From Candidatus Omnitrophota bacterium (lineage in GTDB: Bacteria; Omnitrophota; Omnitrophia; Omnitrophales; Aquincolibacteriaceae), in contig JAYSWD010000065.1 in the NCBI GenBank assembly GCA_043718225.1, forward strand, positions 1 through 51,750: DNA of 51,750 bases. The letters are read 5' to 3'. Positions 1-16,700 of the stretch are shown here, one piece after another (position 1 is the stretch's first letter; every line of letters starts with the position of its first letter). Under the pieces are notes generated by a model. It was not told the DNA's origin. It made no database searches and saw only the letters and a list, made by a program, of their open reading frames with translations. The position numbers and the translations under genes were made by a program.

Positions 1-1539
1 ATACCAACCGATAAATCTTCCGTGTAAAACGACGAGATAGCCCAGAAGTGCGATCAGCGCCCAGGTTTCTTTCGGATCCCAGCCCCAAAACCGGCCCCAT
101 GAATAATTCGCCCAGACTCCGCCGAGAACGGTGCCGGCCGCGAGCAAAACAACGCCGATTTGAAGCGCGCGATAAACCGCGGTCGCAAGCGCATTCGCGC
201 TTTCAATTTTTGCGGGAGTGTTTCTGAAAGCATATCCGAAAACAACGGCATGACCCAATCCCCAGCCCAGCGCAAAAGCCCCGTAGCTCATTGTGATTGT
301 CAAAACGTGAATGGTGAGCCATAAATTGCTGCGTAAAACCGGCACAAGCGGCGACAGCGCCGGGTCGAGCACGGCGGGAAAAGATTCCGCGATCAACAAA
401 CCCAGCGCAGCAACAAATGAAGAAATCACAAGCACGGTGAGATGCCGCAAATTATAGTAAATCGGCAGCGAAAAAACCGCGACGGCCAGGGAAACCCAAA
501 CGATGGATTCGTACATGTTTGTTACCGGCGCGCGGCCTGAAATCACACAGCGCAAATAAAACCCGACCGCGTGCAGCAAAATAGCCGCTCCATAAACAGA
601 CAAACCTAAAATCAAAGAATAACTGCGGTCACGCTTGCGGCTGCGGCGCGAAAATAAATTGAGCAGGAAAAAAAGCGCCGCAAGTAGATAAAGCTTGGAG
701 CCGCGGCCGAAAGCATGCAGGTGATTATAAAAAATTTCTGTGTCGACAAGGCTATAGTCCATGACCATCCCCGCGCGCGCCCAGACAGCCTCGAGCGACT
801 TTCTGAAATTCTGTCCCGCCAGCGCTTTCGCGGCCTCGTCCGGCTTTTCCGCCTTGAACGTCGCGGCAAAATCTTCGGCTGATTTTTTGAAACTCTGCAA
901 TTCCGCCTGCGGCAATTCACGCATCCAGTCCGCGGGCGCCGCGGCAAAATCAGCGAATTTCAGCCAGGCTCCCTGCGGGCTTTGCGGTTCCGGGATCCAG
1001 CCCGGAAGTTCTCCGTCGCCTAATTGTGTCAGGAATATCGCGCGCTCATAAACTTCGATCCGTTTTTTATCGGTAAAAGAAAGTGATCCGCGTTTTTCAC
1101 GGCGGAGAAGCGCGTCTTCCACTTTTTGAACAAACGCCTTTTCGCCCATCACTACTTCGGCGGAAACGCGCTTTCCGATCAATTTGAGCCCAAAGTCGGC
1201 GCGCACTTGTGGCGCGCCCACGTAAATCAACGGCTCGGAAAGCCATTTACCGGGAATGACGATCCATTCCCAAACTGTTTGCGCCGCGGGCTGTTTCTGC
1301 CAGGCGGTTTTGCTCGTAACATATAAAAGAGCTTCGCGCGCGAAGGATTCGAACGGCTTGACCCTGCCGCCCTGCTGCACAGGAATACTAGCAAGTTCAT
1401 CTGACCATCTCTCTTGCGCGGCAAAAGATTGATTCATGCAAATCAAAGTCAGCAAAAAGCAAATAGCCGATAGCCGATAGCCGGCCGCTAATATTTTCTT
1501 AATGCTATGGGCTCTGTGCTGTGGGCTATAAGCTGTCAT
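1..1539 (-). CDS. ccsA: Cytochrome c biogenesis protein CcsA/ResC (System II); 3' end runs off the window
   Basis: Absent from the ORF track because it has no stop in the window. Manual translation of both ends: ATG at 1539 overlaps the upstream stop (ATGA), giving MTAYSPQ...GRVKPFESFAR; the same frame near position 1 reads GGVWANYSWGRFWGWDPKETWALI, the WWD heme-handling motif. Confidence 0.92.
   Translation of the reverse strand, partial: MTAYSPQHRAHSIKKILAAGYRLSAICFLLTLICMNQSFAAQERWSDELASIPVQQGGRVKPFESFAREALLYVTSKTAWQKQPAAQTVWEWIVIPGKWLSEPLIYVGAPQVRADFGLKLIGKRVSAEVVMGEKAFVQKVEDALLRREKRGSLSFTDKKRIEVYERAIFLTQLGDGELPGWIPEPQSPQGAWLKFADFAAAPADWMRELPQAELQSFKKSAEDFAATFKAEKPDEAAKALAGQNFRKSLEAVWARAGMVMDYSLVDTEIFYNHLHAFGRGSKLYLLAALFFLLNLFSRRSRKRDRSYSLILGLSVYGAAILLHAVGFYLRCVISGRAPVTNMYESIVWVSLAVAVFSLPIYYNLRHLTVLVISSFVAALGLLIAESFPAVLDPALSPLVPVLRSNLWLTIHVLTITMSYGAFALGWGLGHAVVFGYAFRNTPAKIESANALATAVYRALQIGVVLLAAGTVLGGVWANYSWGRFWGWDPKETWALIALLGYLVVLHGRFIGWY
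1463..1538. repeat. Inverted pair of 7-bp tandem arrays inside the ccsA 5' end
   Basis: ATAGCCG x3 (1463-1483) faces GCTATGG GCTCTGT GCTGTGG GCTATAA GCTGTCA (1504-1538). Confidence 0.7.
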
Positions 1540-3362
1540 TGGAGTCCTTTTTCGTTGCGGAGAGAATAAGGCCGCGTATAAAACATCAATAAAATACCTC
1601 CGACCATAATAAGCGCGCCGGCATACTTAACGGGAATTCCCGGGTCGCGCCCGACCGCGAAAACGGAAAGGTCTTTTCCGCCGGGGTTCGGGGTATACCC
1701 GGCCTGATAAATTTTAAATCCGCGATAAGTCAAAGGCTGATTCATGGAAATTGTTTTTTCAAGCGAAACGCCGCGCGCGAAATCTTTTAAAACAACATCG
1801 CTTTCAAACGAAGCCGGCTTATTTGTTCCCGGGTCATTCTTGACGCGGAAATCTTTCAGAGCCAGTTCAAATCCGAGGCCAAGCTGGCGCCGCCCGAAAA
1901 TAATTTCAAAAAGCCCACCGTCAATGATCACGCTTTTATGAACGCCTTCGACAACCCAAAACTTTTTGGACGAGGCTTCGGTTTTGATTTCAATTTCAAC
2001 CGCCCCGTAAGCCGCTTCTCTTTTGTCGTCATCTTCGAGAGGAATTACGTTCAAGTCTGATGCCGCGTGCGGCAGAGCCTGCTCAACGCGAAACTGCAGA
2101 TCCATCCAGCCCGTCGAGATCTCTTTCCCCATTTCGACCGGGCCCTGTTGAAGTTTGGTTCCGGTTTGAATTTGATATTGAATTCCGCCGGGCGTTGCCA
2201 CAAAACGTAATTCGTGACTCTCTCCCTTAGAACCAGAATTCGGCCGGCGGTACTGAACGGTCAAACCAAGCTGGCTGTCGGGACGGCCGTGCACCGTGGG
2301 AAAATCCGGAAAATTCGCGAAAACTGTATGCCGTTCTGTTTGCGCCGGTTGGCCTTGGCCAGAGGCATCATCTTTACCGGGCGCAGCCGCAGAGCTAATT
2401 TGTAACACCGCCGCGGGATTCGCCGCATGTTCCGCGGCCGAACCTTCTTTTAAAATATTTTCTTCGACATAAGCATAGCCGTAAAGTTCAGTGATTTTAA
2501 CGCTCAATCCATTCTCAAAAACTTTCTCATAAGGCAAAGCGCTTTTTTCAGGAACGGGAATTTGAAGTTTTTCATCGCCGCGCTGGATTTCCAAATAGGG
2601 CTTATCATTCACATTCGCAGCAGGCTGAATAAAATCGGAAGCGAATTTTAAAATCGCCGGTCCGACTGAAATTTCACGGCTTAAAGCTTCATCCGCGATC
2701 CATTGCGTCACATTCATTTGTTGATTATGCAAAGTGACCTGCACCGCCGCCGGCCCTTCCTGCGCGGAAACCCACTTGGTTTCCGATTCGGTTTTCGGCC
2801 AGAATTGGGTAACCGCGATTTCTGCCCGCTTTCCTTCCGTTTTTAACTCTGCGATTTTTTCACGGCCTTTCCATTTAAACGCATGCTCTTTAAATGAAAG
2901 CATCCGCTCCTCTTTAAACCCCTGCGAATAGAGATAAAGCATGGGTTGTTTGAGCGTAACCCATTTTCCGCTGCCGCCCTCTTCTAGCATAATCTGCCCA
3001 TCCACCGCGGCCTGCTGGGTCGCAAGTGAGCCGGCGAGAATAGTAATAATTCCCAGATGCGTGAGTACAAATCCGATATGCTTTTTTTGCCACGGTAAGC
3101 GGTCCGCCGCGGAACACGCTAAATTTATTACAAGCACGATAAGAATGAGGCCAAACCAGGGCGCGCCATAAACTAAAATTCGCGCGGCATCGGCGCTATA
3201 GCGAGATTCGATGATTGTTCCCGCGGCAAGTACGATCATAAGCGTGACAAGTGTTCCCACGGCGAGCTGAAGGGAGGCAAAAAATTTAAAAATAAGACGT
3301 GCGCTTTGCCCGTTAAAAAAAAGGCTCTGCCCTGCTGTTTTTTTAGTCGATTTTGAGTTCAT
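1536..3362 (-). CDS. ResB/Ccs1-like cytochrome c biogenesis protein
   Basis: N-terminal TM helices (FFASLQLAV...GTIIES; HIGFVLTHLG), large periplasmic region, C-terminal ISMNQPLTYRGFKIYQ...DPGIPVKYAG TM. Coupled to ccsA. Start taken as MNSKS (3362) rather than 3458. Confidence 0.85.
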   Translation of the reverse strand: MNSKSTKKTAGQSLFFNGQSARLIFKFFASLQLAVGTLVTLMIVLAAGTIIESRYSADAARILVYGAPWFGLILIVLVINLACSAADRLPWQKKHIGFVLTHLGIITILAGSLATQQAAVDGQIMLEEGGSGKWVTLKQPMLYLYSQGFKEERMLSFKEHAFKWKGREKIAELKTEGKRAEIAVTQFWPKTESETKWVSAQEGPAAVQVTLHNQQMNVTQWIADEALSREISVGPAILKFASDFIQPAANVNDKPYLEIQRGDEKLQIPVPEKSALPYEKVFENGLSVKITELYGYAYVEENILKEGSAAEHAANPAAVLQISSAAAPGKDDASGQGQPAQTERHTVFANFPDFPTVHGRPDSQLGLTVQYRRPNSGSKGESHELRFVATPGGIQYQIQTGTKLQQGPVEMGKEISTGWMDLQFRVEQALPHAASDLNVIPLEDDDKREAAYGAVEIEIKTEASSKKFWVVEGVHKSVIIDGGLFEIIFGRRQLGLGFELALKDFRVKNDPGTNKPASFESDVVLKDFARGVSLEKTISMNQPLTYRGFKIYQAGYTPNPGGKDLSVFAVGRDPGIPVKYAGALIMVGGILLMFYTRPYSLRNEKGLQ

Positions 3363-3445
3363 GGCTAATATTTGTCCGCTCTGAAGAATGAAGAGCGGGT
3401 ATTCTACAGGCGACAAGGTACGGGGGACAAGCGGCAACTGGTGCC

Positions 3446-3480
3446 AAAACCTTCCCAACCCCCGGCGTTAGGAAGGTTTT
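3446..3480 (-). terminator. Hairpin downstream of RNase HI, likely intrinsic terminator
   Basis: AAAACCTTCC...GGAAGGTTTT inverted repeat with short T-tracts on both strands. Confidence 0.55.
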
Positions 3481-3555
3481 CTAGAGGGAAGCGGCTCGCT
3501 AGCAGATTATCGGACGCTGTGTTTTGCGGTTGGGTGCAGCCCAGAGTTTAAATGA

Positions 3556-3972
3556 CTAATATCCGGCTTCGTCGAGGGCGCGATTCACCTGCCTATCAGC
3601 TCGGCGCATCTGGGGATGTTCGCGCGGCACATGCACATAAGAAATTTTTTTAAATTTCTTTTCAAGGTCTTTGACTTTGAGAAAAAGCGGGCGGAGATGC
3701 TCTGCTTTAAGGCGGTATTCCCCCGTCAGCTGTTTTTTGACAAGCTCGCTATCCATATGATGCGTGATCTCATGCGCGCCAAATTCTTCGGCAAGCGACA
3801 AAGCTTTAATAACAGCTTCATATTCCGCGACATTATTCGTCGTAGCGCCAATCACTTCGCCCTGCTCGAATAGAGCCGCGCCTTTTTCATCGCACAGTAA
3901 AACGCCGATTGCCGCGGGCCCAGGATTGCCGCGCGCGCCGCCGTCAGAATAAGAAAAAATTTTGTGATGCAT
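3556..3972 (-). CDS. rnhA: Ribonuclease HI family protein
   Basis: YSDGGARGNPGPAAIG, TNNVAEYEA, DSELV, HVPRE..N-like/ADR motifs. Start taken as MHHKIF (3972); the longer ORF overlaps the pilin gene. Confidence 0.9.
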   Translation of the reverse strand: MHHKIFSYSDGGARGNPGPAAIGVLLCDEKGAALFEQGEVIGATTNNVAEYEAVIKALSLAEEFGAHEITHHMDSELVKKQLTGEYRLKAEHLRPLFLKVKDLEKKFKKISYVHVPREHPQMRRADRQVNRALDEAGY

Positions 3973-3991
3973 ATAGGAAGCGGCTTTTTGT

Positions 3992-4483
3992 TTATTGAAG
4001 TATGACTGCGCCTGTTCCGCCGGAACAAGGTGAGCTTGTAAAAGCTCCCGAAGAAGTAGCGGAAGACCATGCGACGCCCGTTTCATCGACACAAAAAGAA
4101 TTATTCCCCGTGATCGCAGCCTGTGCGGGTTGAGCGAAAATCGCATACTGTGACGCATCGGTCCGCGCGTAAGTAAAAAGATAACCGCTTTTAGTTGCTG
4201 TCGTTCCCGCTCCCCAAGTCGAGTCGAGATAGGCTGGTGATGCGGCCGTAAGGCCGCTAATATCCGCAGGGTAAGACGGCGTTGCCTGCGCGGCGCGATA
4301 AGCTTCAATAGAAGTCGCGAACGTTTTCAAATTCGATTTTGTCGCGGATTCATTCGCATTCAACCGGCTACGCATCAAAGCCGGGATGGCAATAGCCACA
4401 ACAATACCGAGAATCGCTATGACAATCATGACTTCCACAAGCGTGAAACCTGTTGTTACTGAAAATAATTTGCGGCTAAACAT
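3992..4483 (-). CDS. Type IV pilin / prepilin-type protein
   Basis: Class III signal G|FTLVEVMIVIAILGIVVAIAIP with E5, plus a C-terminal Cys pair. Confidence 0.9.
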   Translation of the reverse strand: MFSRKLFSVTTGFTLVEVMIVIAILGIVVAIAIPALMRSRLNANESATKSNLKTFATSIEAYRAAQATPSYPADISGLTAASPAYLDSTWGAGTTATKSGYLFTYARTDASQYAIFAQPAQAAITGNNSFCVDETGVAWSSATSSGAFTSSPCSGGTGAVILQ

Positions 4484-4489
4484 TAAAAC

Positions 4490-5164
4490 TTATTTTTTCT
4501 CCGGCGGGCTTTGACCGAAATTTGCTTCAAGAGTCTCAACTTCTTTTTGAAGCGCGCGAAGGCGATTTTTAAGCTCACGTACGGGGTCCGGCAAATCTCC
4601 ATGATCGAGATCAATCGGGTTTATTTTTTTGCCGTCTTTGCGAACAATTTCCGCGGGAACGCCAACGACGGTGCAGCTGTCGGGGACCGAATGAACCACA
4701 ACCGAGCCGGCGCCGACTTTCACGCAATTACCCAACCGGATATTTCCGAGCACCTTTGCTCCAGCGCCCACGACAACATGATCTCCCAAGGTCGGATGGC
4801 GCTTGCCGCGTTCATTCCCCGTTCCCCCGAGAGTGACGCCTTGATAAAGCGTGACATTTTTGCCGATCTCGGAAGTTTCTCCGATCACGACGCCCATGCC
4901 ATGGTCAATGAAAAGCCCGGGGCCAATTTGCGCGCCGGAATGAATTTCAACGCCGGTGAAAAAACGTCCAAGCTGGGAAAGCAGCCGCGGAATCAACGGA
5001 ACTTTCCATGAATGAATAACATGCGCGAATCGGTAAAGCAAAACAGCGTGAAAACCGGGATAGAGTAATATTACTTCGAGCCAGCCCCAGGGAGTTTGTG
5101 CCGCCGGATCACGGTCAATGCAGGCGCGGAAATCGCTTTTGACTTTATAAAGGAAATTTGACAT
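4490..5164 (-). CDS. cysE: Serine O-acetyltransferase
   Basis: DRDPAA, YPGFHA, TGVEIHSGAQIG, IDHGMGVVIGET, GKRHPTLG hexapeptide region, DHGDLPDP. Confidence 0.95.
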   Translation of the reverse strand: MSNFLYKVKSDFRACIDRDPAAQTPWGWLEVILLYPGFHAVLLYRFAHVIHSWKVPLIPRLLSQLGRFFTGVEIHSGAQIGPGLFIDHGMGVVIGETSEIGKNVTLYQGVTLGGTGNERGKRHPTLGDHVVVGAGAKVLGNIRLGNCVKVGAGSVVVHSVPDSCTVVGVPAEIVRKDGKKINPIDLDHGDLPDPVRELKNRLRALQKEVETLEANFGQSPPEKK

Positions 5165-5180
5165 AGGGGAATTTTAGCAC

Positions 5181-5215
5181 AGACTATCGACTAAAGACTA
5201 CCGACTAAAGACTGC
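5181..5215. repeat. 7-bp tandem array
   Basis: AGACTAT CGACTAA AGACTAC CGACTAA AGACTGC. Confidence 0.75.
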
Positions 5216-5223
5216 AAACGAAG

Positions 5224-5263
5224 ACACCCCCGAGGTGCGGTCCGCGCCGTTCCTCGGGGGTGT
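5224..5263. terminator. GC-rich hairpin (terminator or REP-like) just after the 2344-aa gene
   Basis: ACACCCCCGAGG...CCTCGGGGGTGT, 12-bp perfect stem. Confidence 0.55.
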
Positions 5264-5275
5264 GAAAAGGTTTGT

Positions 5276-8200
5276 TTACGCCATTGAAGCAATGTAATTG
5301 CGAATTTCAACCGCCAGCAAGGCCGCATCCAAGATAGAATTAATCGAAAGCGACCCGTTGAAGCCGAAAAGCGAGGGATAGCGACGCGCGATTTCCTGCA
5401 CATCTTTTACCGTAATATCTGTTTGAGCCGCGGTTGAAACGTTAAGAAAAACCGCGGAATTTAAAATTTGCGCCGAGGGAAGCCCGCCGACCTTAACTGC
5501 CAAATGCCGGAAGGCCTTCAAATCGGAAGGCTGCATGTTAAGTCCTTCCAGATTGAAAGTAAAAATTTCCTGATTGCGCATGAGAAAAGATTCCATGGCT
5601 TCCGAGTTGGCGACAGTTTGAACCCGAGCAACCTTACCTACTTTTTTAGAAAATGCAGAAGCTTCCTTGGAAGGTTTTTTAGGCAAGAGCAAAGCCATAT
5701 GATTTTCAATTAATCCGTCGGGATGTTGCCTTTTTAAGGCTTCGATTTTTTCGGCGTATATCAAAAAGTCAGATTTAGCCTCGAGAGAATCGGGTTCCAT
5801 TGTCGGTGAATATGCCATCGCAAAACCCAAATGCAGTTTGGTTTTCGGATTAGCTTGAAAATGCGCTGCAACAAATATTTCCAAAGGGTCCGCGGGTAAA
5901 ACTGCAGGCTGAGCGAGAGGCAATTCGGTTCTGGCTTTGCTTTCAGCCGCAGCTCCCCGCGCCGAGTCCAAAATAATTTTGGGAACAAATCCGTCGCCTA
6001 AATGAGCCGCAATATAAGCCGGCGCTGCGACTTCTGCCGCAATAGCGGGTTGGCTTCCAAGGATGGTTACGACAAGCAAAAAGAATGCCGCGAAAATTCC
6101 TAGATTGTTTGTTGATGCCACCGGTGTCTTCGCGCCGCTTTGAATTCGAGCTTCTGATCGAACAGCAGCGCTTCTTGTCTCGGAACGCTGGGTTACAATT
6201 AATGTCTGATACGCGTCTTCGGCCGGAATCCTAACCTGCCAAGCCTCACGAAAATTTCGACCATCATATTGAGCGGGCGCACCATCCCGCTGAACCATTC
6301 CGTCCCTAATCGCGGCATCACGAAAACCCAAAAACTTTAATTCGTTCGGCATAATCACCGTATTTAATTTTTGAGTTTCACTGCTGCCCTGATTGAACTC
6401 GCGGTCAAAACCTGGCGCGACTTTTAAATTGAAGAAAACTGTTGCGCCGCTTTTTAATTTCACGGCAATAACAATTGTCGCAATATGTGAAGAAGTCACG
6501 ACGCGCCGCTCTACCACCTGAGACTCATCAAAAAGAGCGCCCTCTACAAGCTGATTCAATCTTTGAATGTTTTTATACATTGCGGCATCCCAATCTTCAA
6601 ATAATATTAGCTCTTGCGGCGCAAGCGCAGCCGCAAGAAGCTGAATTATTCTTACGCCGGCCTTGCTAAATAAAAACACGGCAGATCGCGAATCGATTTC
6701 AGCAAGCTGCTCAAAATACTGCGAAAACGCAGCCTCCCGCTCTTCTGGTTGCGTTAATTCGAACATGGCTTGAATCTGTCTTTCGATTTCACCCACGCTG
6801 CCTTCTGCGTTTCTTTCGTTCGCGAGCTTCGTAGCGATATGCATTTTAAACGCTGCTTCATTCTGTTTAGGCTCTAATTCCAAAACTTCGATGTTAAGCG
6901 GCGCAAGAATACCGACACCCAGCCGCCCATCTCCGACTGGGTGTAATTTGAAATCGAGCCCTCGCTTCACTTCTTTGACAAGAAAAAATGCGCTCTGAGA
7001 GAAACCAAGGAGTTGGGCGGCATACTTGTCAAAAAACACTGTCGCGCGAGCCTTTTTTACCCGTTGCCCCCCCTCGATTTCGTCTGTTACAGAATGAGCA
7101 ACATTGATGTTAACAAGATATGGCTTTTTTCCTGGGCGCTGAACAACATAGCTGTGCAAACCATCTACGCTCGTATCTAAAACGTGCGCCCAAGATTGGG
7201 TGTCAAGATACCGGACAAGGTATTCTGCCCAGGGCTGATAAGTGTTATCGATAGAAGCATTTTCTAAATTTTTTCTTAATGGGGCTATCTCGTCCGGACT
7301 CATCGCGTTTAAATAGGCTTCGAGGAATTTCCCCGCTGATGCCAGCAGCCATTGATCGATCAATTCGACTATTTCGGAAAGCGACTCAAGCCTAACTTGC
7401 GGATTCGTAGATGCCATAGCTTTTTCACGAAGCTCGTAAACACGCTGCGTAAGGACGGAGTGGTTCTCCGGCAAAGCTTCTAATTCAGCTATAAAATAAT
7501 CAAACAAATTTTGCCCCGGTTCCATTTCCGCAGGAGTCAAAACGCCGATAAATTCGATTTTCATCGAACGTTTTTTGGGATCTCCGTCATGACTCTCAAT
7601 CACCGTTTCCCGGTAACGAATCCCCGCACTGTACGCCAAACTAACAAGAAGATCTTGTCCGTGAGTTTGTTCGGCGCCCCACAATCTTTCGTAGTTTATA
7701 ATTTTTCTAAATGATCGCATGGTCCGCAACAATCCGCCCTTCAGTGCCGGATCGCTGGGATACGCCTTCAATGGAACTTCTTTGCCCTCTCGCAATAAAC
7801 GCCAGACAAAAGTCTTTCGTCGCGGAATGGACTCGATTGCCTTCCCATCAAGCGGAGAGCGTTCAATTAATGCACGTCGTTCCATTTCCTTGCTAATGGT
7901 GATTTCAAATAAATGCGCATGCGCCAAAGCTTGGCTGGTTGTCGCATCAACACGAGGCGAAGAAGCAACCGAGTCAAACATACGCTTTTGGCGCGTCTCG
8001 GCATCTTTTCTGTTTTCTTTGGCTTGCTTGACTGCCGCGATAAGTGATTCGGTGCTTGGCCGCCGGCCTCCGCCTGCTTGAGTGCTTATAATTTTATCGT
8101 AGGCAACTAAAATACCGTTGCGAATGTGCGCTTTTTTTTCTATCAACCATTCCGCCAGCTGTTCATACTTTAAAATAGGGTTGCCATCCTTATCCAGAAC

Positions 8201-11200
8201 GGGAATTTCTTTCCCGTTTTCGTCAACCACAACCCAAATTTCCGGATTAGCCCCGCCAAAGACGCCTATCACTTCACCGCCGTTGGCTAAAACTTTCATC
8301 ATGCTGGTTGCCGACGCTTCTAAAAACTCATCAGAGAGCATGATGGCTCCCTGCGCACCTCGAAAAATGATAGGCGCTTCGTAGTAATTATAATTTTCGA
8401 TGGTTGCAACCCGGTCTTCAATCGACATCAATTCAACAAGAAATTTGATATATAAAAACCTACGATAGGCTTCTCGCTCGTCAAAAGTTCTGCCGCCGAT
8501 TAAAAGCCGCGCCCATGTTTCATGGATCTCATTTAAGTTTTTAGCATTCCGAATCGTTTGCTTGACCAGGGAAAAAGATTCTTTTTTGCCGGCAAGCCAT
8601 TCATTAAACAATTGTCCAAGATCAATATGGCTTAGACTTTTTTCATCTAGTGCTTGCCTGGCTTCGCGCGTGAATCCCTCGTCATATTTATCAGGCCCTT
8701 TATAAGCAACTTGCCGACGCAAATTGGTTAAAATCGGATCATTCAGCGCGGCCTGGATAAAGTCATTGAACGCCGGATGCACGGCCAAAAAAACACTCCA
8801 GGGCTCTGCTCTGTCTGCTTTCAAAAAAGTCGTAAGTTCGGAAGAAAATTGCTCAATTCGCGAAATCAGCGCGGCCTCACTAAGACCGTGAGCAGACATA
8901 TAATCTTTAAAGCTGTCAAACAACCATTTGATTTTATGTTTGCGATAGAGCCAAATCATCAGCTGGGCCGCGTCAATGGCACTGATAGCTTCATTTTTTT
9001 GCATGAAGTCCTTTTTCTGATCTGCATGATCGGGCAAATTCAACGCTTCAAAGAGCGCTGCGTCACTGACTTCCGGCACATCGCCATAAACAGGTATGCC
9101 GATTGCGCTTTTGGCCTTCTCTTTCAATTGCTGCCGGTCGGGCGAAACCCAGCGCTGAAAGAAAATGCCGTTTGTGCTTCGAGCTTTGCTATTAGGATCA
9201 TAAAATCCAAAAAGTTTATGCCAGTAAAATCGGAAGATATTGTCACGCAACGCTTGCATGTGTTCATTCAGACTTACTCCCGTGATAAGGTGGTAGCTAA
9301 GCAGAACAAAGTCTGTAATCCAAATCAAACCGTTCCCGGTAATAAAGCGCTTCATCCATCTTGGAAATTTGAGCTGTTTGAAAAAGGCCGCCGGCGGCTT
9401 AGGCACGCCCGGCATGAAAACGGTATGATTGAGCGTCACTTTTATTGCATCGGGGAAATGCCCGAGAGGAATGCTGGTAAAGGCCTCGTGATCCACCACC
9501 AATATTTTATTCTCATACGGTTTGCCGGCTACCAACTTCTTCATTAAAAGTTGTCCTGCTTCGCGGAAAACAATCATATCGGAATACCGGTCATAATTAT
9601 CTTCATAAGCCTCTTGAAAGACCGGCTCGCGCGTATCTGCATACCGTGCATCTAAATAATACTGTTTGGCTTCCTTGTGAAAGTCCATTTCTGTTTCATA
9701 AATTGCCACCTCGATTTCGCGCTCGCGGCCGTCAAGCTCAAGCGTCATTTGAATTTTCAAATCTCCACGCAACTTCATTTTAGATTTAATAACATCGCCC
9801 CACGGAACACCCGCGCCCTTTTCGGGTTTGTTTTTAATTCTGTTCCAAAGCGGATTTAATCCAACCCAACCTTTAGACGCGCCTGTTTCAATGGCGCCAT
9901 GGGCTTCATAAAGATCCGGCATCAATGCACCGAGACCTCCCGTTAAAGTCACCTGTGCGATAAGTGTCGCTGCTTGCGCGTTGGGAATTTTATATCTAGC
10001 TACAAGCTTTTTGGTCGCTTGCTCAAATGCGGCACGGATAGCCAGTTCGGCTCCGCCGGTCACCCCAAATTTTTTAAGCTCCTCATGATCATTTTCCTGA
10101 ATGGCCCGAAAAACTTCTCGCGCCGTGTTTTCAGGTAAAATTTTCTGAAGATCATAAAGATCATCATTAATATCTTTTTCAATTGCGTCTAAAATATGCC
10201 GCGGCAAGCCGGCCTCCATGGCAAAGCTTGCAATCCAATACTCTGGCAAATATTTAAATCCATTTTCGGGAGTTAACAATTTAGGGGCCTTGCGAAACTC
10301 GGAGCGTGCAAAGGCGGGTGCAATTGCTTTGGAAGATGATGATGTTGCTCGAAAGCGGCTTGTCGCCGGAGAGGCGGAAACCTGTGCTGTCTGCATCACC
10401 GGCCCTTTTAAAACAAAAGGGGTACTGATAAACTCTTTCATCGTCATTGCATTCAACGAAGACGCGAGCGTTGTTTGATTTAATTTCCCGGCTTTTTTGA
10501 GGCGCTGAAGCGCCGGCATTAATTTTGCGAATGTATTTTTCCAGCTTGCTTTCAACGAAGGATATTGCTCGGGATAAACCGCTTCTAAAACAATTTCGTC
10601 TAATAGCGAAAGCGCGCGCAGGTTTTTCTGCGCGGCAGCACCGTGAATTCCGCGAATTAAATTTTCGCGCCATGTTTTATAATTTGCCAAAGCACGCGAG
10701 GGATCTTTACGTTCGCCTTCTAAGTCCAAAAGCCGGTGTGTCATGGCACGCGCAAAAGATTCATACAATTTAATTTGGCCATTTTCAACACGCAGAAATT
10801 TTTTCCAGGAAACATCTCCGCTCATTAAGGCGTTGTAGCGGTTTTCGGCAGGCAGCTCCGAAATCGCCGGCGTCAAAACAGAATAAGAAATACCGCGTGC
10901 TTCGAGCTCGTTTGTGAGCCCCTCGGCGTGAAAGCCGCCTACAATCAAAACTGCGGTCGACTCGCCGGCGCGATGCATTTGCTTCAAGGTGTTTTCAAGC
11001 AATGCTTTTTCGCGCATTTCGGCATTCTTATAAAAAAGCGCAAAGTCCGAATTCACAAGTTCCGCGCGCAAAGTTTCTAAATTTTCGGAAAGAGCCCGAA
11101 AGCGCGCGTTCGAAACTACAGAGAAAGGCTTAACCGTCTGATTCCAAGTTTTGCGGGAAAGCTCGAGTTTAATCCAGTCGTTTAAAAACTCCGACTGATG

Positions 11201-12310
11201 AATTAAATTTAGAAGCGCGGTCTGGTCTGATTTGAAGGCGAGTTTTTTTTCAAGTTTCGCCAGCATGTTTTCCCATTCAGAAAGAAAGATATTCGACCGC
11301 ATGCGTGCCAACATTTCTCCGCGCTGCGCCAAAGCCCGCAATGCCTCCGGAATACGCGGCGTCCAGCCCTGCGCACGGCAGAAACGAATCGCATAAGCGG
11401 CAAATTGCGCATCGGATAAATTTCCCGTCGCCCAAGCCTGTTCATTCGAGGACCATTCTTTAAGCGTCTGTTTATTTTTTATTTTTCGGCGGACTTCCCG
11501 GCTCCATGCCGCGAGCGCTTCGCGCGAAAAAGATTGAGCGTCTTGAAGCTCCTGCGCCAGCACAGCAAGATGCGGAAAATCTTTTTTAAAGCCGGAGAGT
11601 TTCAGGTTTGCTTTTTCTAAAATTGACGCAAGAGCCTGCGGCTCGCCTTTTTTAAAACCAACGCGCTGGCTTTCAAACTCCATCAATTCTTTTGAAAAAA
11701 TTTCTTCCTTGAGGCTTTTGATTTTTTGATTCAGTTCATCCAATCGGCTTTGATAGGCGGGCAAAGCGGCGCGCGAAGAAAAATAAAATTGAAGGCCCTT
11801 TGCATACAAAGCAGAGTTTTCGGCTCCGAAATAATGTGTCTTTTCATTGCCTGAAAGCGCGGCCAAGGCTGCGCCTGAAATTTCACCTTGTGCCCCAAGC
11901 TGCCGCATGGCTTGGTTCAACTTCTCCGGATCAGGGAAAGCGCGGAGAAGCTCGGTTTTAAAATCGCCCGTGACACCTTCAACGCCCACAAAACGGAGGC
12001 GTGCTTCTTTTTGTAAAAATTGAATTGTTTGCGAAATGGACTCCTGAGCCGCGGGAACGGCATGCGCATCATTTAGAATCCAAATGGCTTCAGACTTTTT
12101 ACCTTGATATGTTTTTTCGGTAAAAGCGAGATTTTCGGGAAGCTTTAGGTGACGAAAAAGAAATGTGGAGAGTGCTCCCGACTCGACTTGGGCCTTACCG
12201 ATTGAAAACTGTGCTTGCGCGGGAGAAATGGAAGACCATGTAAATACCCCCGTAAAGAGAAGCACAAACAATCTAAAACGCAAGGAGCGACGGTTGGGCT
12301 GAAATCGCAT
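5276..12310 (-). CDS. Large secreted modular protein (2344 aa): shared N-terminal DAH/GGFH domain, RSExR-bounded divergent alpha-glucan phosphorylase, C-terminal region
   Basis: Signal peptide (RFRLFVLLFTGVFTWSSISPAQA); NDAH..VEG..MRE..VGGFH; RSEFR at aa 669; phosphorylase motifs SFAMEAGL, TGGLG, TNGI, RRQVAYK, EASATSMMKVLANG; RSETR/RSEAR at aa 2042/2051. Confidence 0.85.
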   Translation of the reverse strand: MRFQPNRRSLRFRLFVLLFTGVFTWSSISPAQAQFSIGKAQVESGALSTFLFRHLKLPENLAFTEKTYQGKKSEAIWILNDAHAVPAAQESISQTIQFLQKEARLRFVGVEGVTGDFKTELLRAFPDPEKLNQAMRQLGAQGEISGAALAALSGNEKTHYFGAENSALYAKGLQFYFSSRAALPAYQSRLDELNQKIKSLKEEIFSKELMEFESQRVGFKKGEPQALASILEKANLKLSGFKKDFPHLAVLAQELQDAQSFSREALAAWSREVRRKIKNKQTLKEWSSNEQAWATGNLSDAQFAAYAIRFCRAQGWTPRIPEALRALAQRGEMLARMRSNIFLSEWENMLAKLEKKLAFKSDQTALLNLIHQSEFLNDWIKLELSRKTWNQTVKPFSVVSNARFRALSENLETLRAELVNSDFALFYKNAEMREKALLENTLKQMHRAGESTAVLIVGGFHAEGLTNELEARGISYSVLTPAISELPAENRYNALMSGDVSWKKFLRVENGQIKLYESFARAMTHRLLDLEGERKDPSRALANYKTWRENLIRGIHGAAAQKNLRALSLLDEIVLEAVYPEQYPSLKASWKNTFAKLMPALQRLKKAGKLNQTTLASSLNAMTMKEFISTPFVLKGPVMQTAQVSASPATSRFRATSSSSKAIAPAFARSEFRKAPKLLTPENGFKYLPEYWIASFAMEAGLPRHILDAIEKDINDDLYDLQKILPENTAREVFRAIQENDHEELKKFGVTGGAELAIRAAFEQATKKLVARYKIPNAQAATLIAQVTLTGGLGALMPDLYEAHGAIETGASKGWVGLNPLWNRIKNKPEKGAGVPWGDVIKSKMKLRGDLKIQMTLELDGREREIEVAIYETEMDFHKEAKQYYLDARYADTREPVFQEAYEDNYDRYSDMIVFREAGQLLMKKLVAGKPYENKILVVDHEAFTSIPLGHFPDAIKVTLNHTVFMPGVPKPPAAFFKQLKFPRWMKRFITGNGLIWITDFVLLSYHLITGVSLNEHMQALRDNIFRFYWHKLFGFYDPNSKARSTNGIFFQRWVSPDRQQLKEKAKSAIGIPVYGDVPEVSDAALFEALNLPDHADQKKDFMQKNEAISAIDAAQLMIWLYRKHKIKWLFDSFKDYMSAHGLSEAALISRIEQFSSELTTFLKADRAEPWSVFLAVHPAFNDFIQAALNDPILTNLRRQVAYKGPDKYDEGFTREARQALDEKSLSHIDLGQLFNEWLAGKKESFSLVKQTIRNAKNLNEIHETWARLLIGGRTFDEREAYRRFLYIKFLVELMSIEDRVATIENYNYYEAPIIFRGAQGAIMLSDEFLEASATSMMKVLANGGEVIGVFGGANPEIWVVVDENGKEIPVLDKDGNPILKYEQLAEWLIEKKAHIRNGILVAYDKIISTQAGGGRRPSTESLIAAVKQAKENRKDAETRQKRMFDSVASSPRVDATTSQALAHAHLFEITISKEMERRALIERSPLDGKAIESIPRRKTFVWRLLREGKEVPLKAYPSDPALKGGLLRTMRSFRKIINYERLWGAEQTHGQDLLVSLAYSAGIRYRETVIESHDGDPKKRSMKIEFIGVLTPAEMEPGQNLFDYFIAELEALPENHSVLTQRVYELREKAMASTNPQVRLESLSEIVELIDQWLLASAGKFLEAYLNAMSPDEIAPLRKNLENASIDNTYQPWAEYLVRYLDTQSWAHVLDTSVDGLHSYVVQRPGKKPYLVNINVAHSVTDEIEGGQRVKKARATVFFDKYAAQLLGFSQSAFFLVKEVKRGLDFKLHPVGDGRLGVGILAPLNIEVLELEPKQNEAAFKMHIATKLANERNAEGSVGEIERQIQAMFELTQPEEREAAFSQYFEQLAEIDSRSAVFLFSKAGVRIIQLLAAALAPQELILFEDWDAAMYKNIQRLNQLVEGALFDESQVVERRVVTSSHIATIVIAVKLKSGATVFFNLKVAPGFDREFNQGSSETQKLNTVIMPNELKFLGFRDAAIRDGMVQRDGAPAQYDGRNFREAWQVRIPAEDAYQTLIVTQRSETRSAAVRSEARIQSGAKTPVASTNNLGIFAAFFLLVVTILGSQPAIAAEVAAPAYIAAHLGDGFVPKIILDSARGAAAESKARTELPLAQPAVLPADPLEIFVAAHFQANPKTKLHLGFAMAYSPTMEPDSLEAKSDFLIYAEKIEALKRQHPDGLIENHMALLLPKKPSKEASAFSKKVGKVARVQTVANSEAMESFLMRNQEIFTFNLEGLNMQPSDLKAFRHLAVKVGGLPSAQILNSAVFLNVSTAAQTDITVKDVQEIARRYPSLFGFNGSLSINSILDAALLAVEIRNYIASMA

Positions 12311-12453
12311 TTTCCCCCTCTACAGATTCAAGAATTAAACTGGTTTTAAAAACTTACATTATGAGTTTAGCAAAGACAAACACAAAAAAATAAATTTTTT
12401 AATCAATTATTTAAAGCTATGAAATGCTATAAGATGATTTGACTGGCTATGGC

Positions 12454-13551
12454 TTAAACCGAGAAACGAAACAGCATGACATCGCCGTCTTTCACTATAT
12501 ATTCTTTACCTTCAACGCGTAGCAGGCCTTTTTCTTTGACGGCTTTTTCAGAGCCGCATGCGACTAAATCCTCATAACTCATTACTTCCGCGCGAATAAA
12601 ACCGCGTTCAAAATCACTGTGAATCACGCCTGCAGCCTGGGGCGCGGTCATGCCTCTCACAATCGTCCACGCGCGAACTTCTTTTTCGCCTGCCGTAAGA
12701 TAAGTGATTAAATTCAAAGTTTCATACCCGCAGCGGATGAGCTTATGCATGCCGGGTTCTTCCAATCCTAAACTTTCTAAAAAATCTTTTTGTTCGGCTT
12801 CCGACAATTCAATAATCTCGGATTCTACTTTTCCGGAAATCACAACCACCTTCGCGCTTTCAGCCGCGGCAATTTTGCGGACCTCTTCGACCAGCGGCCC
12901 CCCGCCCGGCAAGTCGCTCTCAGCAACATTGGCACAATAAAAAGTAGGCTTTAAAGTTAAGAAACTGCATTCTTTAACAGTAAGTTGCTCATCTTCGGTA
13001 AGTCCCAGTTTGCGCAAAGGCGTTCCGGCCTCGAGCGCTTTCTTAATTTTTTCGAGTGTCGGCTGGATCGCGAGCGCGTCTTTATCGCCGCTGCGCGCGA
13101 GTTTGTCATTTTTGGTAAAGCGCGTACCAATAGTTTCGAGGTCTTTTAAGCAAAGTTCGGTGTCGATAACTTCAATGTCACGCGCAGGATTGACGCTGCC
13201 GGAAACGTGCAAAATATTCGGGTCTTCAAAACAACGCACTACATGCATGATCGCTTCGACTTCGCGGATATGCGTTAAAAATTTATTGCCCAGGCCCTCG
13301 CCTTCGGCCGCGCCTTTCACAAGTCCCGCGATATCATAAAATTCAACCGTGGTCGGAACTTTGCTTTGCGGCTTGATCAGCTTGGTGAGAGTTTCAAGGC
13401 GGTAATCGGGAACAGGCACAATGCCCTTATTCGGTTCAATCGTGCAAAACGGATAATTCGCCGCCTGCGCGCGTGACTCTTTATTAATCGCATTGAAAAT
13501 CGTGGACTTGCCAACGTTCGGCAGCCCCACAATTCCGCATTTAAAGCCCAT
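12454..13551 (-). CDS. ychF: Redox-regulated ATPase YchF
   Basis: GIVGLPNVGKST, ANYPFCTIEPN, DIAGLVKGA, TGS domain ending YIVKDGDVMLFRF. Confidence 0.98.
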   Translation of the reverse strand: MGFKCGIVGLPNVGKSTIFNAINKESRAQAANYPFCTIEPNKGIVPVPDYRLETLTKLIKPQSKVPTTVEFYDIAGLVKGAAEGEGLGNKFLTHIREVEAIMHVVRCFEDPNILHVSGSVNPARDIEVIDTELCLKDLETIGTRFTKNDKLARSGDKDALAIQPTLEKIKKALEAGTPLRKLGLTEDEQLTVKECSFLTLKPTFYCANVAESDLPGGGPLVEEVRKIAAAESAKVVVISGKVESEIIELSEAEQKDFLESLGLEEPGMHKLIRCGYETLNLITYLTAGEKEVRAWTIVRGMTAPQAAGVIHSDFERGFIRAEVMSYEDLVACGSEKAVKEKGLLRVEGKEYIVKDGDVMLFRFSV

Positions 13552-13720: not shown

Positions 13721-16700
13721 TTACGCGGCTGAGGCGAAAACAAGCTGGGACAAAAAGGCTCGTGTCATTTCAATAAAACGGCCGGATGGATCGCTTAAAA
13801 ACTCATCTTTTTGAACCAATGGCGTATCGCTAACCGTCCATAATAGTCCTAAGGCCAACATCGCAGCTTGGCCTTGAGCAGCAACACGGGCGACTCCTTT
13901 GCGAAGGCTAGAAAATCGAACCTCACTTCTTCCGGTTATGATCACCGCTCGCTCAGAAACCTGAACTCGCATCAAAGCTTTCGACTCATCTCCGTTAATA
14001 AAATTAACACGTCCCCTGCCGTTTGGAATTGTGGTGAGCATCTGGGCTCGGTGGTCTTCAGAATCAGTTAATGAATCCTCACCATAAACTAAAAAGCGAA
14101 TCTCGGAACGTGTGTAGGCGGTTTTATAGAGCGCCAGAAAATTTTCTTCGGGAAGATTCCGCAATTCAACGCGCGAAATTAAAACTGTTCCGACTTTTTG
14201 AGCCGGTAACGTTTTCAAATTAAGCATGCGCTGCTCCGAACGCGCAAGAAAAAACGAATCGTGCTTACCGAAGAGTGGTTGCACAATTTCTTTGGGAAGA
14301 TCCAAAATATAAAATATATTTTCTTGCAAATCGATCTCGACATCTTTTAATTTGACCTTGTTCATACCCGAAATCATTGGGCGAACATTCTCATAAATCT
14401 GATAACGAGGATCGTTTATGAGCATTCGGGTCCAATCCCTGTATGTGCTTTTGTCATTTCCGAATGAACCTTCAAATGTTTCGACAGCCTGCTTAACCTT
14501 TGCATACGGGTCAATCGATGGCGTCACTATCGCATCAATGACATCAAGCCAGGCAAGATGCACCTCAGCCAAACTAATAATCCGAGTATTTGCAATGTAG
14601 GCATCTTTGGGTCCGGCCGCTACAATCGCTGCTTTCAATTTCGCTATATCCCCTGTAAGCGCCTCCCGAGTATTGCCTGTTGATAAAATAGTTTGTTTTA
14701 ATTCTGCCTGCCATGTTATTGATGCTTCGGTTTTTGCCTGTTGGCCGCCCCCCTTGCGACGCTGTCTTATATAGTCAGAATGTTTACGTTGCTTCTGCGG
14801 CGGAGGCTGAAAATGTGGCTTTGCAGGTGGAAAAAATCTCGGCACACTCGGCGCTGGTGCAGCGGGAGCCGGGGCCGCAGGAGCAGCAGGCAGCGGAATA
14901 CGAAACTGCCTTTCTGCATTTTCAAGTTTTGTTTTGAATCCACGCACCTCATTTGCAAGTATGCGCATTGGGCCGTCCACCAACGTGGTTTTTAAAGCCG
15001 CCTTTGCAACCAACAAAATATTAATGCCTTGAATTTCCCTTTCGATTTGAGCTAGTTCCTTTTTCCGCTTATGATAAAGTTCCGCACTGCCGATTTCCGC
15101 TTTCAAAGTTTCCAATATAGCCGGCAGGCGCTCATCTATAAATTTTTGTATCCTTGCTTTTGGTGAATTGTCCTCCGGCAAGGGGGCTGCCGCTACCGGC
15201 GCTTGCGGCGCGGGTTCTTTTTTAGTCTCGGCGCCCGTTGGGGCGACCGGAACACTTGCCGGTGCCTTCGCTGTTAATGCAGATTCCGTTTGCGGCGCAA
15301 CCGCAGCCTTGATGCTCACCGTTAGGGGTAAATCAAAAAATATTTGCGTATCTCGGATAGCACGCTCGAGCTTTTCAAATTGCGCGCGACCGGCTGCATC
15401 TAATTTTTTAAGATGGGGGCGCGTCTTTTCCAAAAGTTCGACGGCGCCGGACAAAGCCTTTTTCGCGGTTACGTTGTCACGCACGCTTGCACTCAAACTA
15501 GCCGTGTTCAAAATTCGTGACAAAGAAAGAACGCGTGAGTTGAAATCCTTTAAAACCACATCTGCATCTTGAGCGGGCAATACAGCGGACACTTGTGCCG
15601 CTGCCACAGCTACCACCGTTTTCCCTGCAACAATATTTTGTTTATAAACTTGCAAGGCCCGTGGCCAAGACCCATATTTAGTGACCATAACAGAATAAAA
15701 ACGCCGAACCTCTTCGTCTTGGTGAAAATGAATTTCTCCTGACCTGAGTTTTCCTTCGAGCACAAGCCGCGCGAAGAGAGCGTTTTCTTTTTCTTGAGTC
15801 CATTCCACCGGACGCGGACTATCTTTTTTAGGAATGTACAAAGCCCCCATTGGAATCCATTCGCGGTCCATGGCATAGCGGCGTATTTTTTTAATAATTT
15901 CACGGCGCCGCGCCCCAACGCTTGCCGGACTTATTTTAAGTGCTTCAGCTAGCGCAGTATCAGGCGCGGTTTTAGGTTCGGTAAAGCCTAAATCCTTATT
16001 TATCAATTCCCGGTGCTGGTCAGACCAGACAATATCTTTCACCGCGGTCTTGACTTCATTTACCTTCAAAACAGACCATTCAACAAGACGCGTCCAGCCC
16101 GTTCGCCGGTCTTTCAAAGCCAACAAGCCGGCGCGGCGCTGATTCTGAAAATTCGTGCTCGAAAGGCCCGTTTGTTCGAGTAACTTTCTAAAATCAGGCA
16201 AGAGCTCGTCCTCATCGGTGCTCAAGTAGCTTTTTACTAAAACATCTCTTTCTTTTGGCTCTAAAAAATTCCAGGCGTAACGCAATTCCATCATTTTTTC
16301 AGAATTGGTTCCGGCTAGCGGCGCACTCGTTCCATTGGCCCAGCGAAGATCCGCAATTGTAATTCCATAAACTTCAGGAATTCCGGTCGAGTAATCCAAT
16401 AAATCTTTTGGCTCTGTTTCGACGGGCAACAAAGGCTCAAAGCCATAATGCCGCAAGCCTTCGCGGATCGATCCAAACTCTGTTAAAATTTGGATCAAGG
16501 GCAGCAGTCCCGCTTCAAATAAAACAGTGTAAGTAATCGGGCCGCTCAACGCGAAGCCCGCGAGGGTTTGCCGAATATAATCATCCGTCCATTTATAGCG
16601 GATTACGGCTGTTGCGTTTTGAGTCCCCGCTTTTACAGCATGCGGCTTTCGCCATCTTACTTTTTTTATTTCCTCGTCAACCCACCCCTTTTGGATTGCA

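Follow-up and report, generated by a model that had tools for sequence, protein, structure and literature searches.

The giant genes of the Omnitrophota are a recognised puzzle. Their products have been suggested to be cleaved into several parts (10.1101/2023.11.21.568195; 10.64898/2026.06.07.730766), and West-Roberts et al. 2023 (10.1101/2023.11.21.568195) regard C39 and S8 peptidase domains as possible processors and call the cleavage points unknown. In Chlamydia trachomatis, the glycogen enzymes GlgP, GlgX and MalQ carry type 3 secretion signals and are put outside the bacterium's own cytoplasm to act on glycogen of another compartment (Gehre et al. 2016, PMC4829429). A fold of the TIKI family can yield a sequence-specific endopeptidase, as in RRSP, and catalytic His-Glu pairs 28 residues apart are described for Bcr135 (His-85/Glu-113) and RRSP (His-3902/Glu-3930) (PMC6254334). 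Here, we analyze a window of 51,750 nucleotides from a Candidatus Omnitrophota bacterium (GCA_043718225.1, contig JAYSWD010000065.1, positions 1 to 51,750; genome of 2.32 Mb in 186 contigs, 88.8% complete). Our subject is one gene in it, a single open reading frame (ORF) of 2,344 codons on the reverse strand at 5276-12310, whose product of 2,344 amino acids (aa) carries a phosphorylase-like cargo between short R-S-E-x-R motifs, here called seams.

The protein is laid out as a putative signal peptide, a head domain, the seam RSEFR, a cargo of 1,368 residues, the seams RSETR/RSEAR, one predicted membrane helix and a tail; all its features lie on the reverse strand. The cargo appears to be a new, exported and highly divergent variant of glycogen phosphorylase in a known kind of giant protein. 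Our model suggests that the gene product is a small member of a head-cassette-tail family of the Omnitrophota, with a Sec-type signal peptide, a TIKI-like His/Glu hydrolase head and one cassette. As the best explanation, which we hold with moderate confidence, we propose that this protein is exported, that its seams are processed by the head, and that the phosphorylase is thereby released to degrade glucan.

The phosphorylase-like cassette

An earlier note on this stretch had placed RSEFR, RSETR and RSEAR around a cargo of about 1,370 residues with GlgP-like motifs and a retained pyridoxal 5'-phosphate (PLP) lysine. The coordinates proved exact, and we counted 1,368 residues. The search that the note had proposed with PF00343, the Pfam model of the GT35 phosphorylases, gave a match above the cut-off (29.8 bits against 27), which is the sole Pfam match of the protein and covers only aa 1300-1365 (66 of 713 model positions). 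For the cassette alone the score was 30.9 bits against the gathering cut-off of 27, a small margin.

Together with PF00343, a profile of our own (A1) and profile-profile alignment by hhalign delimit a GT35-like core at about aa 770-1520 (7751-10003). It holds, in order, GGLG (791-794), NHT (961-963), TNG..W (1046-1054), RRQVAYK (1198-1204) and EASATSMMK (1331-1339; 8294-8320). The catalytic roles of GGLG, (T/N)HT, TNG and the basic phosphate-site motifs are known from muscle phosphorylase. EASATSMMK aligns residue by residue with EASGTSNMK in yeast and plant phosphorylases of solved structure and with EASGTSGMK in the organism's own stand-alone phosphorylase, and Lys1339 falls on the cofactor lysine.

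The A1 alignment of the core (13 rows, aa 770-1570) has 65 invariant columns, including the PLP lysine, GGLG, NHT, TNG, RR..YK and EAS.TS.MK. When its profile was compared with solved sequences, 48 of the 50 matches at E ≤ 1 were glycogen, starch or maltodextrin phosphorylases (best E 2.2e-10), and the alignment passes through the cofactor-lysine motif. The organism's own enzyme is a protein of 563 aa (contig C168; 567.7 bits with TIGR02094) whose gene adjoins a debranching-enzyme-like gene. Aligned with A1 by hhalign (probability 97.2, E 4.5e-11, 437 columns, about 20% identity), it is in register at GGLG, NHT, TNG..W, RR..YK and EAS.TS.MK.

The cargo had been described as a phosphorylase copy. 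Its relationship to GT35 stands, and the idea of a copy does not: because the Pfam match is minimal and the cut-offs of the NCBIfam phosphorylase models are missed, we regard the cargo as a deeply divergent, separate branch and no copy of the housekeeping GlgP, which is encoded elsewhere in the genome. The phylogeny that had been proposed as a check agrees with this, as 31 module rows form one clade, with 99 in the Shimodaira-Hasegawa-like approximate likelihood ratio test (SH-aLRT), distant from the rows that resemble the stand-alone TIGR02094 enzymes. The end branch of this copy is long, at 1.2 versus 0.2-0.5 for its nearest relatives.

Only about the first 750-800 of the 1,368 aa of the cargo resemble GT35, and the last ~520 aa match nothing known. 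This C-terminal extension (about aa 1521-2041; 6188-7750) is 24-30% identical to sequences of four other genomes and has no Pfam match; its profile (A3, 5 rows) retrieved from the PDB at E ≤ 5 only designed helical repeat proteins, at E 0.06 or worse. Ahead of the core lies an N-terminal leader (aa 674-769; 10004-10291), which is homologous from aa 679 onwards to P0003, an ortholog described below. In most other giants the upstream seam stands 40-57 aa ahead of the GGLG region.

These properties could also mean that the module is no longer a phosphorylase and now serves as a glucan-binding or otherwise repurposed GT-B domain, or as a synthase in reverse. Scores far under the curated phosphorylase cut-offs, the long end branch, large insertions and the 520-aa extension would fit such a change. 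We nevertheless consider it improbable, as the lysine and all aligned motif residues are invariant in the 13 rows. Moreover, among the 34 near-invariant columns, in which exactly one of the 13 rows deviates, this copy is the deviating one only once, by a conservative change of Ile to Val. Judged from its sequence, the cargo is a whole GT35-type enzyme on a deep branch of its own, with its motif residues kept, and it is probably still a PLP-dependent alpha-glucan phosphorylase.

We then examined the distribution of the cassette. An exhaustive HMMER search with aa 674-1873 against 1.84 billion representatives returned no more than 72 proteins at E ≤ 0.001, of which 39 reached E ≤ 1e-30. Their length is 2,000-7,600 aa in nearly all cases, and public records label the close relatives "hypothetical protein". 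Because 18 of the 25 shorter matches that were scanned carry PF00343 (E ≤ 0.001, up to 90 bits), these shorter relatives bridge the module to the classical phosphorylase family. When proteins of 437-1,392 aa were searched by word index with the core (795 aa), no match at E ≤ 0.001 emerged. The module is present in 49 of 301 sampled Omnitrophota genomes (E ≤ 1e-20), always in open frames of 1,054-19,582 aa, and in 34 of 65 genomes of the same family.

Across 28 other giants, the module begins anywhere from about aa 600 to 3,900. Half of them (14/28) hold it between two RSExR motifs 1,230-1,450 aa apart, and eight have no RSExR at all; in two of these eight, P0026 and P0015, it is flanked by GARLA-type seams, with 1,358 and 1,298 aa from one to the other. 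In P0024, aa 131-172, which form the GGLG region of the module, weakly match the starch-synthase GT5 model PF08323 (E 0.00019), and this cassette might account for some of the GT5 assignments that have been reported in Omnitrophota giants.

A syntenic ortholog in a sister species, P0003 (L030, G020, 3171-10991), has the same gene order and 2,606 aa; it is 54% identical to our protein in the head and 34% in cargo and tail. It contains exactly one extra piece of 335 aa, located between RSEMR-658 and RSETR-993, both of which align with the single upstream seam of our protein. In family f20, the cassette occurs as a stand-alone protein of 1,032 aa (L016, G023, 1135-4233, reverse strand), which has its own signal peptide, no head and no seam, ends in -SAA and aligns with the cargo over 824 columns at 31% identity. 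Another stand-alone version, 940 aa long, is organised in the same way. Heads also stand alone, in open frames of 511-605 aa, in other genomes that hold the free cassette. Because both free cassettes and free heads occur, what is a single polypeptide here would correspond to separate exported proteins in other lineages.

The seams and the head domain

Seam 1, RSEFR (aa 669-673; 10292-10306), follows a linker (aa 521-668; 10307-10750) that comprises a helical region and a Ser/Thr/Ala-rich stretch and has no Pfam match; a composition scan marked aa 634-671 as low complexity. The cargo ends at a double seam (6146-6187) composed of RSETR (aa 2042-2046; 6173-6187) and RSEAR (aa 2051-2055; 6146-6160). 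These three motifs compare with 0.04 expected from composition, and looser patterns (R.E.R,.SE.R, [RK][SAT][ED].[RK]) have no further match anywhere in the 2,344 aa. A neighbouring member of the family, an ORF of 9,367 aa on the same strand (13721-41824), has the same head and 17 RSExR seams that separate enzyme cassettes, where 0.23 would be expected. Throughout the genome, at least two R[SA]ExR motifs are found in 30 ORFs of at least 300 aa (101 thousand residues), while the other 792 ORFs (412 thousand residues) have 16 in total.

The seams lack conserved flanks and are frequently doubled, 9-30 aa apart. Their median spacing of 286 aa is the size of an ordinary protein. Pfam searches with the 21 seam-to-seam pieces of the giant (at least 20 aa each) found GNAT, alpha/beta-hydrolase, protein kinase, methyltransferase and HATPase domains, each on separate pieces, and in giants that hold the phosphorylase module, domains of phosphoglucomutase and UDP-glucose dehydrogenase were each wholly within single seam-to-seam intervals. 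Together with the phosphoglucomutase and GH77 enzymes of the relatives, these pieces bear out the idea that the scaffold-plus-motif design is reused with other cargo.

The seams are also conspicuous at the DNA level. At 196 RSExR seams of this genome, the codons CGC (68% versus 29% in the background), TCC (73% versus 17%), GAA (90% versus 72%) and CGG (51% versus 18%) are enriched, which shifts the seams towards CGC-TCC-GAA-ATG-CGG, and nothing is conserved beyond the 15 seam bases. The seams might therefore be mainly DNA-level joints, that is, short in-frame recombination sites for the gain, loss or swap of cassettes, with the peptide as a by-product. This fits the skewed codons, the ortholog pair, whose single-cassette difference begins and ends precisely at seams, and the wide variation of the position of the cassette among the giants. 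We find it distinctly unlikely that this is their main role. The RSExR peptide is still the top pattern at six loci that belong to other genomes of this family, but third codon positions vary, which argues for selection on the peptide. Moreover, 15 bases offer little length for homologous recombination, and there is no linked recombinase. A function in recombination would also be compatible with proteolysis. The fourth residue is Met in 91 of the 200 seams counted in this genome, and the preference is genome-specific (Leu in 6/6 seams of one genome, Val in 6/9 of another). We suggest that codons and cross-genome variation fit selection on the peptide plus homogenisation within each genome.

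If the seams are processing sites, the head is the candidate processor. The head domain (about aa 34-520; 10751-12211) bears D-A-H (81-83), E111, R433 and G-G-F-H (458-461). It had been described as the same N-domain as that of the giant ORF, and BLASTP confirms the similarity (517 aligned columns at 23% identity, E 7e-13). A search with the first ~540 residues gave matches at 30 places in about 17 open frames of the genome (143 to 9,372 aa), which include every one of its 14 seam-bearing ORFs whose N-terminus is complete. Nine paralogous heads share 18 invariant columns, which include A-H (82-83), E111, R433 and G-G-F-H (458-461). The head thus keeps a D/E-x-H motif, followed after 28 residues by a Glu, and a second His within G-G-x-H, from which the Glu is separated by an insertion of ~350-420 residues. 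In 8 of the 9 heads the first His and the Glu are 28 residues apart, and the Glu is at +28 in 25 of 31 giants from the databases.

We modelled a complex of the head (aa 35-540, 9-row alignment) with a 40-aa peptide around the double seam in three runs. The median score was 0.61 (0.31, 0.62 and 0.61), compared with 0.00 for the highest-scoring of three controls. It passes the mark set for this score, which 58 of 80 solved complexes and 2 of 110 mismatched pairs attain. The runs agreed in at least 71% of contacts, with a partner pLDDT (predicted local distance difference test) of at least 50. On the head, the modelled interface comprises residues 80-83, 88, 110-113, 426-427, 433, 458-461 and 492, i.e. 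the invariant residues, and S-E-T-R-S of the first seam of the double seam touches residues 459-460 in GGFH. The model supports binding and would place the seam in the conserved His/Glu cleft of the head.

Whether the protein is cut at all deserves separate consideration. It might never be cut and act as a whole, envelope-anchored multi-domain protein, the RSExR motif belonging to the linkers, perhaps as a signal at which a chaperone or the translocon docks or pauses. In the available text, West-Roberts et al. (10.1101/2023.11.21.568195) leave open whether the giants act whole or cut, and no conserved flanks extend the seam into a protease recognition site. Against this reading stand the same cassette elsewhere as a free protein with a signal peptide, the frequent doubling of seams, as in precursor processing, the different seam words that lineages use at the same cassette borders, and the contrast between the head-seam model and its best control. 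We therefore regard an uncut protein as doubtful, and processing of the seams by the head, as yet unproven, as the best-supported mechanism.

Proposed export, topology and place of action

The N-terminus (aa 1-33; 12212-12310) has the form of a signal peptide, as read from its translation, with an Arg-rich start, a hydrophobic core and A-Q-A before Gln34, where signal peptidase would cut. The nine aligned heads all have the same N-terminal build and a small-x-small site, and the stand-alone relatives have signal peptides of their own. The link of the cargo to a signal-peptide-like N-terminus, as put forward in the earlier note, is upheld, and its occurrence both here and on the free forms points to a location outside the cytoplasm. 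Export by the twin-arginine pathway was considered and rejected. An R-R pair is present at the N-terminus, but the residues that follow do not match the usual pattern of the twin-arginine motif, and R-R is missing from the other heads.

A single hydrophobic helix follows the double seam (about aa 2069-2090; 6041-6106), with a Kyte-Doolittle peak of 2.11 at aa 2072-2090. The only other strong peak is amphipathic (1.7, at aa 1878). In 20 of 29 module-bearing giants, a crude hydrophobicity scan found no strong helix between head and module. The tail (aa 2091-2344; 5279-6040) ends in -S-M-A and is similar only to the tails of P0003 and P0018; phmmer found no similar tail in this genome. We therefore do not assume a conserved tail domain, as only 1 of 171 tail pairs was similar by BLAST and only the C-terminal Ala ending is kept. 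Among the complete family ORFs of this genome, 16 of 19 end in Ala and 11 of 19 in Ala-Ala, an ending found in 9 of 745 other ORFs. A C-terminal Ala also occurs in 25 of 29 module-bearing giants of other genomes and in both stand-alone forms. In the window, the C-termini concerned lie at 5279-5290 for the 2,344-aa ORF and at 13724-13735 for the giant, and both end in a small residue followed by Ala. Non-polar C-termini are read by tail-specific (S41) proteases and by ClpX, and the family ends recall them. The genome has one S41 peptidase gene, on contig C152.

The company that the module keeps in other giants was informative about its role. P0019 carries GH77 and amylo-1,6-glucosidase directly after the module, P0005 a phosphoglucomutase, P0017 a GH13 alpha-amylase and P0044 a ROK kinase. 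Because enzymes of glycogen metabolism occur in the same giants, the company of the module points to a role in alpha-glucan breakdown. Our model thus proceeds in three steps. The protein would first be exported and anchored in the envelope. The RSExR seams on either side of the cassette would then be processed, either by the protein's own head (in cis) or by those of other proteins (in trans), freeing the phosphorylase as a separate enzyme. Finally, phosphorolysis of alpha-1,4-glucan outside the cytoplasm would yield glucose-1-phosphate, as part of a glycogen-degrading toolkit.

The place of action could be a different one. The earlier note had argued that GT35 phosphorylases are cytoplasmic PLP enzymes. 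The PLP lysine is indeed kept, but such enzymes are not always cytoplasmic, as GlgP of Chlamydia has a type 3 secretion signal (PMC4829429). As the earlier note had suggested, the exported phosphorylase may instead enter a prey or host cell, which could supply PLP and phosphate, and mobilise the glycogen of the prey. In favour of delivery, several cassette types need cytoplasmic cofactors: kinase, methyltransferases and GNAT in the neighbouring giant; phosphoglucomutase, GH77 and debranching enzyme in relatives. Omnitrophota giants have been discussed as predation factors (10.1101/2023.11.21.568195, available text), and the type 3 secretion signals on the Chlamydia glycogen enzymes, GlgP included, offer a parallel (PMC4829429). 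However, neither the window nor the family gives a pointer to an injection device, the neighbouring genes are housekeeping genes, and the single helix with its tail suggests anchoring in the producer's own membrane. We consider delivery unlikely on balance.

Several observations weigh against the explanation that we prefer, namely export, processing by the head and release of an active phosphorylase. To our knowledge, there is no precedent for a PLP enzyme exported through Sec, which would have to acquire its cofactor after leaving the cytoplasm. The helix at aa 2072 has its positive charges at the N-terminal end, and by the positive-inside rule this would put the cargo in the cytoplasm. The core scores 27.2 bits with TIGR02093 (cut-off 552.9) and 19.1 bits with TIGR02094 (cut-off 191.7); because these cut-offs are missed by far, the substrate or the chemistry may have changed. 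The sequence tie of the head to the TIKI superfamily is weak: PF04187, the model of the Tiki-superfamily protein ChaN, matched three of the nine heads below its cut-off (best E 0.0036), PF01963 gave one sub-threshold match, and the head profile A2 found no solved relative in the PDB (best E 0.38). The controls of the complex model were unrelated proteins, neither a scrambled seam nor a seam-free linker, and the runs used a shallow alignment of our own, for which the calibration is only roughly valid. Given the strong synonymous codon bias, part of the seam conservation may lie at the DNA level. Because the module was not found in three of the four other genomes of the same genus that were searched, it would be dispensable. 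Lastly, a UhpC-type sugar-phosphate transporter (TIGR00881) was seen only below the cut-off in this 88.8%-complete genome.

A wider proposal, on which we place little weight, is that Omnitrophota export a whole glycogen toolkit (phosphorylase, GH77, debranching enzyme, alpha-amylase and phosphoglucomutase) as cassettes of Sec-dependent polyproteins. A built-in TIKI-like head would cut them at R-S-E-x-R or at another word specific to the lineage, and the enzymes would act beyond the producing cell, either within an enlarged periplasm or inside attached prey, where they would convert foreign glycogen to sugar phosphates. Such proteins would be what polyproteins are in viruses, and their use of Sec would parallel the secretion of glycogen enzymes by Chlamydia. 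We rate this generalization as doubtful.

The surrounding locus and described systems

The genes around the 2,344-aa ORF are housekeeping genes (YchF, a hexapeptide transferase, RNase H and cytochrome c assembly), and the YchF GTPase gene separates it from the upstream giant ORF of 9,367 codons. Contigs from two public sediment runs are identical to the window over 5000-12600; they possibly stem from the source sample and are hence not independent. These contigs break at 9710-9721 and 9975-9992, inside the GT35-like core, and none of those listed spans the whole gene. The breaks may reflect strain variation in the assembly graph, and we take the ORF to be continuous across both places because the relatives are colinear there.

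Other features of the window concern the giant and its surroundings. Its two largest cassettes (1,620 and 1,728 aa) are without a significant Pfam domain, and a long Lys/Ala/Pro-rich stretch of low complexity runs from aa ~4910 to ~5270 (window about 26000-27100) within one cassette. A 568-aa ORF on the forward strand (42001-43707), which faces the giant gene at its start, is without a Pfam match (E ≤ 0.001), and a 166-aa ORF (43704-44204, forward strand) matches the 23S rRNA intervening-sequence protein family (PF05635, E 5.8e-36). Beyond the giant, ~36 kb from the phosphorylase cassette, lie a phosphoglucomutase gene (48313-50046) and a DUF4301 gene (50047-51543), both on the reverse strand; their proximity is probably a matter of conserved gene order rather than of a functional link.

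In the literature searched, we found neither the seams nor the cassette, and no paper that pairs Omnitrophota with a polyprotein. RSEMR appeared, among the papers listed by a text search, only in unrelated ones, as a term of magnetic resonance imaging or of RNA-seq software. The available text of the two papers on Omnitrophota giants (10.1101/2023.11.21.568195 and 10.64898/2026.06.07.730766) does not mention a seam motif, a TIKI-like head or GT35. That of the former has 0 occurrences of 'phosphorylase' and that of the latter 0 of 'GT35' and of 'glycogen'; supplementary domain tables might list PF00343.

The 2,344-aa protein offers a minimal test case for these giants, with one head, one cassette, three seams and one tail, and it is small enough to express. 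The cassette provides an enzymatic read-out, through PLP binding and the release of glucose-1-phosphate, and the placement of the seam in the His/Glu cleft is a concrete model. If our explanation is true, the giants would be polyproteins with a known cutting rule, each cassette of which could be studied as a separate protein, and an unannotated exported branch of the glycogen phosphorylase family would be established. The question also bears on how very small, possibly predatory bacteria feed.

Compared with the described GT35 phosphorylases (PF00343; TIGR02093; TIGR02094, 'more_P_ylases'), which are the only real PDB matches of its profile, the cargo has the same order of motifs from GGLG to the PLP lysine. 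It differs by long insertions, a leader of ~100 aa, the ~520-aa extension and the missed NCBIfam cut-offs, and its module is always linked to a signal peptide, directly or via a head. The Omnitrophota giants described as 'Archaeovorins' belong to the same phylum and likewise combine a signal peptide and a membrane helix with strings of metabolic enzymes, including those of sugar metabolism, as far as their available description goes; the 2,344-aa protein would be a minimal, one-cassette member.

The D/E-x-H, the Glu at +28 and the second His of the head would fit the catalytic residues (2His/2Glu) of the TIKI superfamily (Tiki, TraB/PrgY/GumN, ChaN, erythromycin esterases and RRSP), from which it differs by the sub-threshold Pfam matches, the lack of a solved relative and the long insertion, in a comparison made by sequence only. 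MARTX toxins contain a cysteine protease domain and use type 1 secretion. They likewise consist of one polypeptide with exchangeable effector modules, a built-in releasing protease and a repertoire that varies between strains (PMC6254334). Here, in contrast, the part of the protease would fall to an N-terminal TIKI-like His/Glu domain that follows a putative Sec signal, the candidate cut site is R-S-E-x-R, the cargo consists of metabolic enzymes, and there is no sequence relation. The three kinds of enzyme secreted by Chlamydia trachomatis occur as cassettes in Omnitrophota giants. Those of Chlamydia are separate, housekeeping-type proteins with type 3 signals and no signal peptide, whereas the phosphorylase described here appears as a divergent paralog behind a putative Sec signal, in a multi-cassette type of protein delimited by seams.

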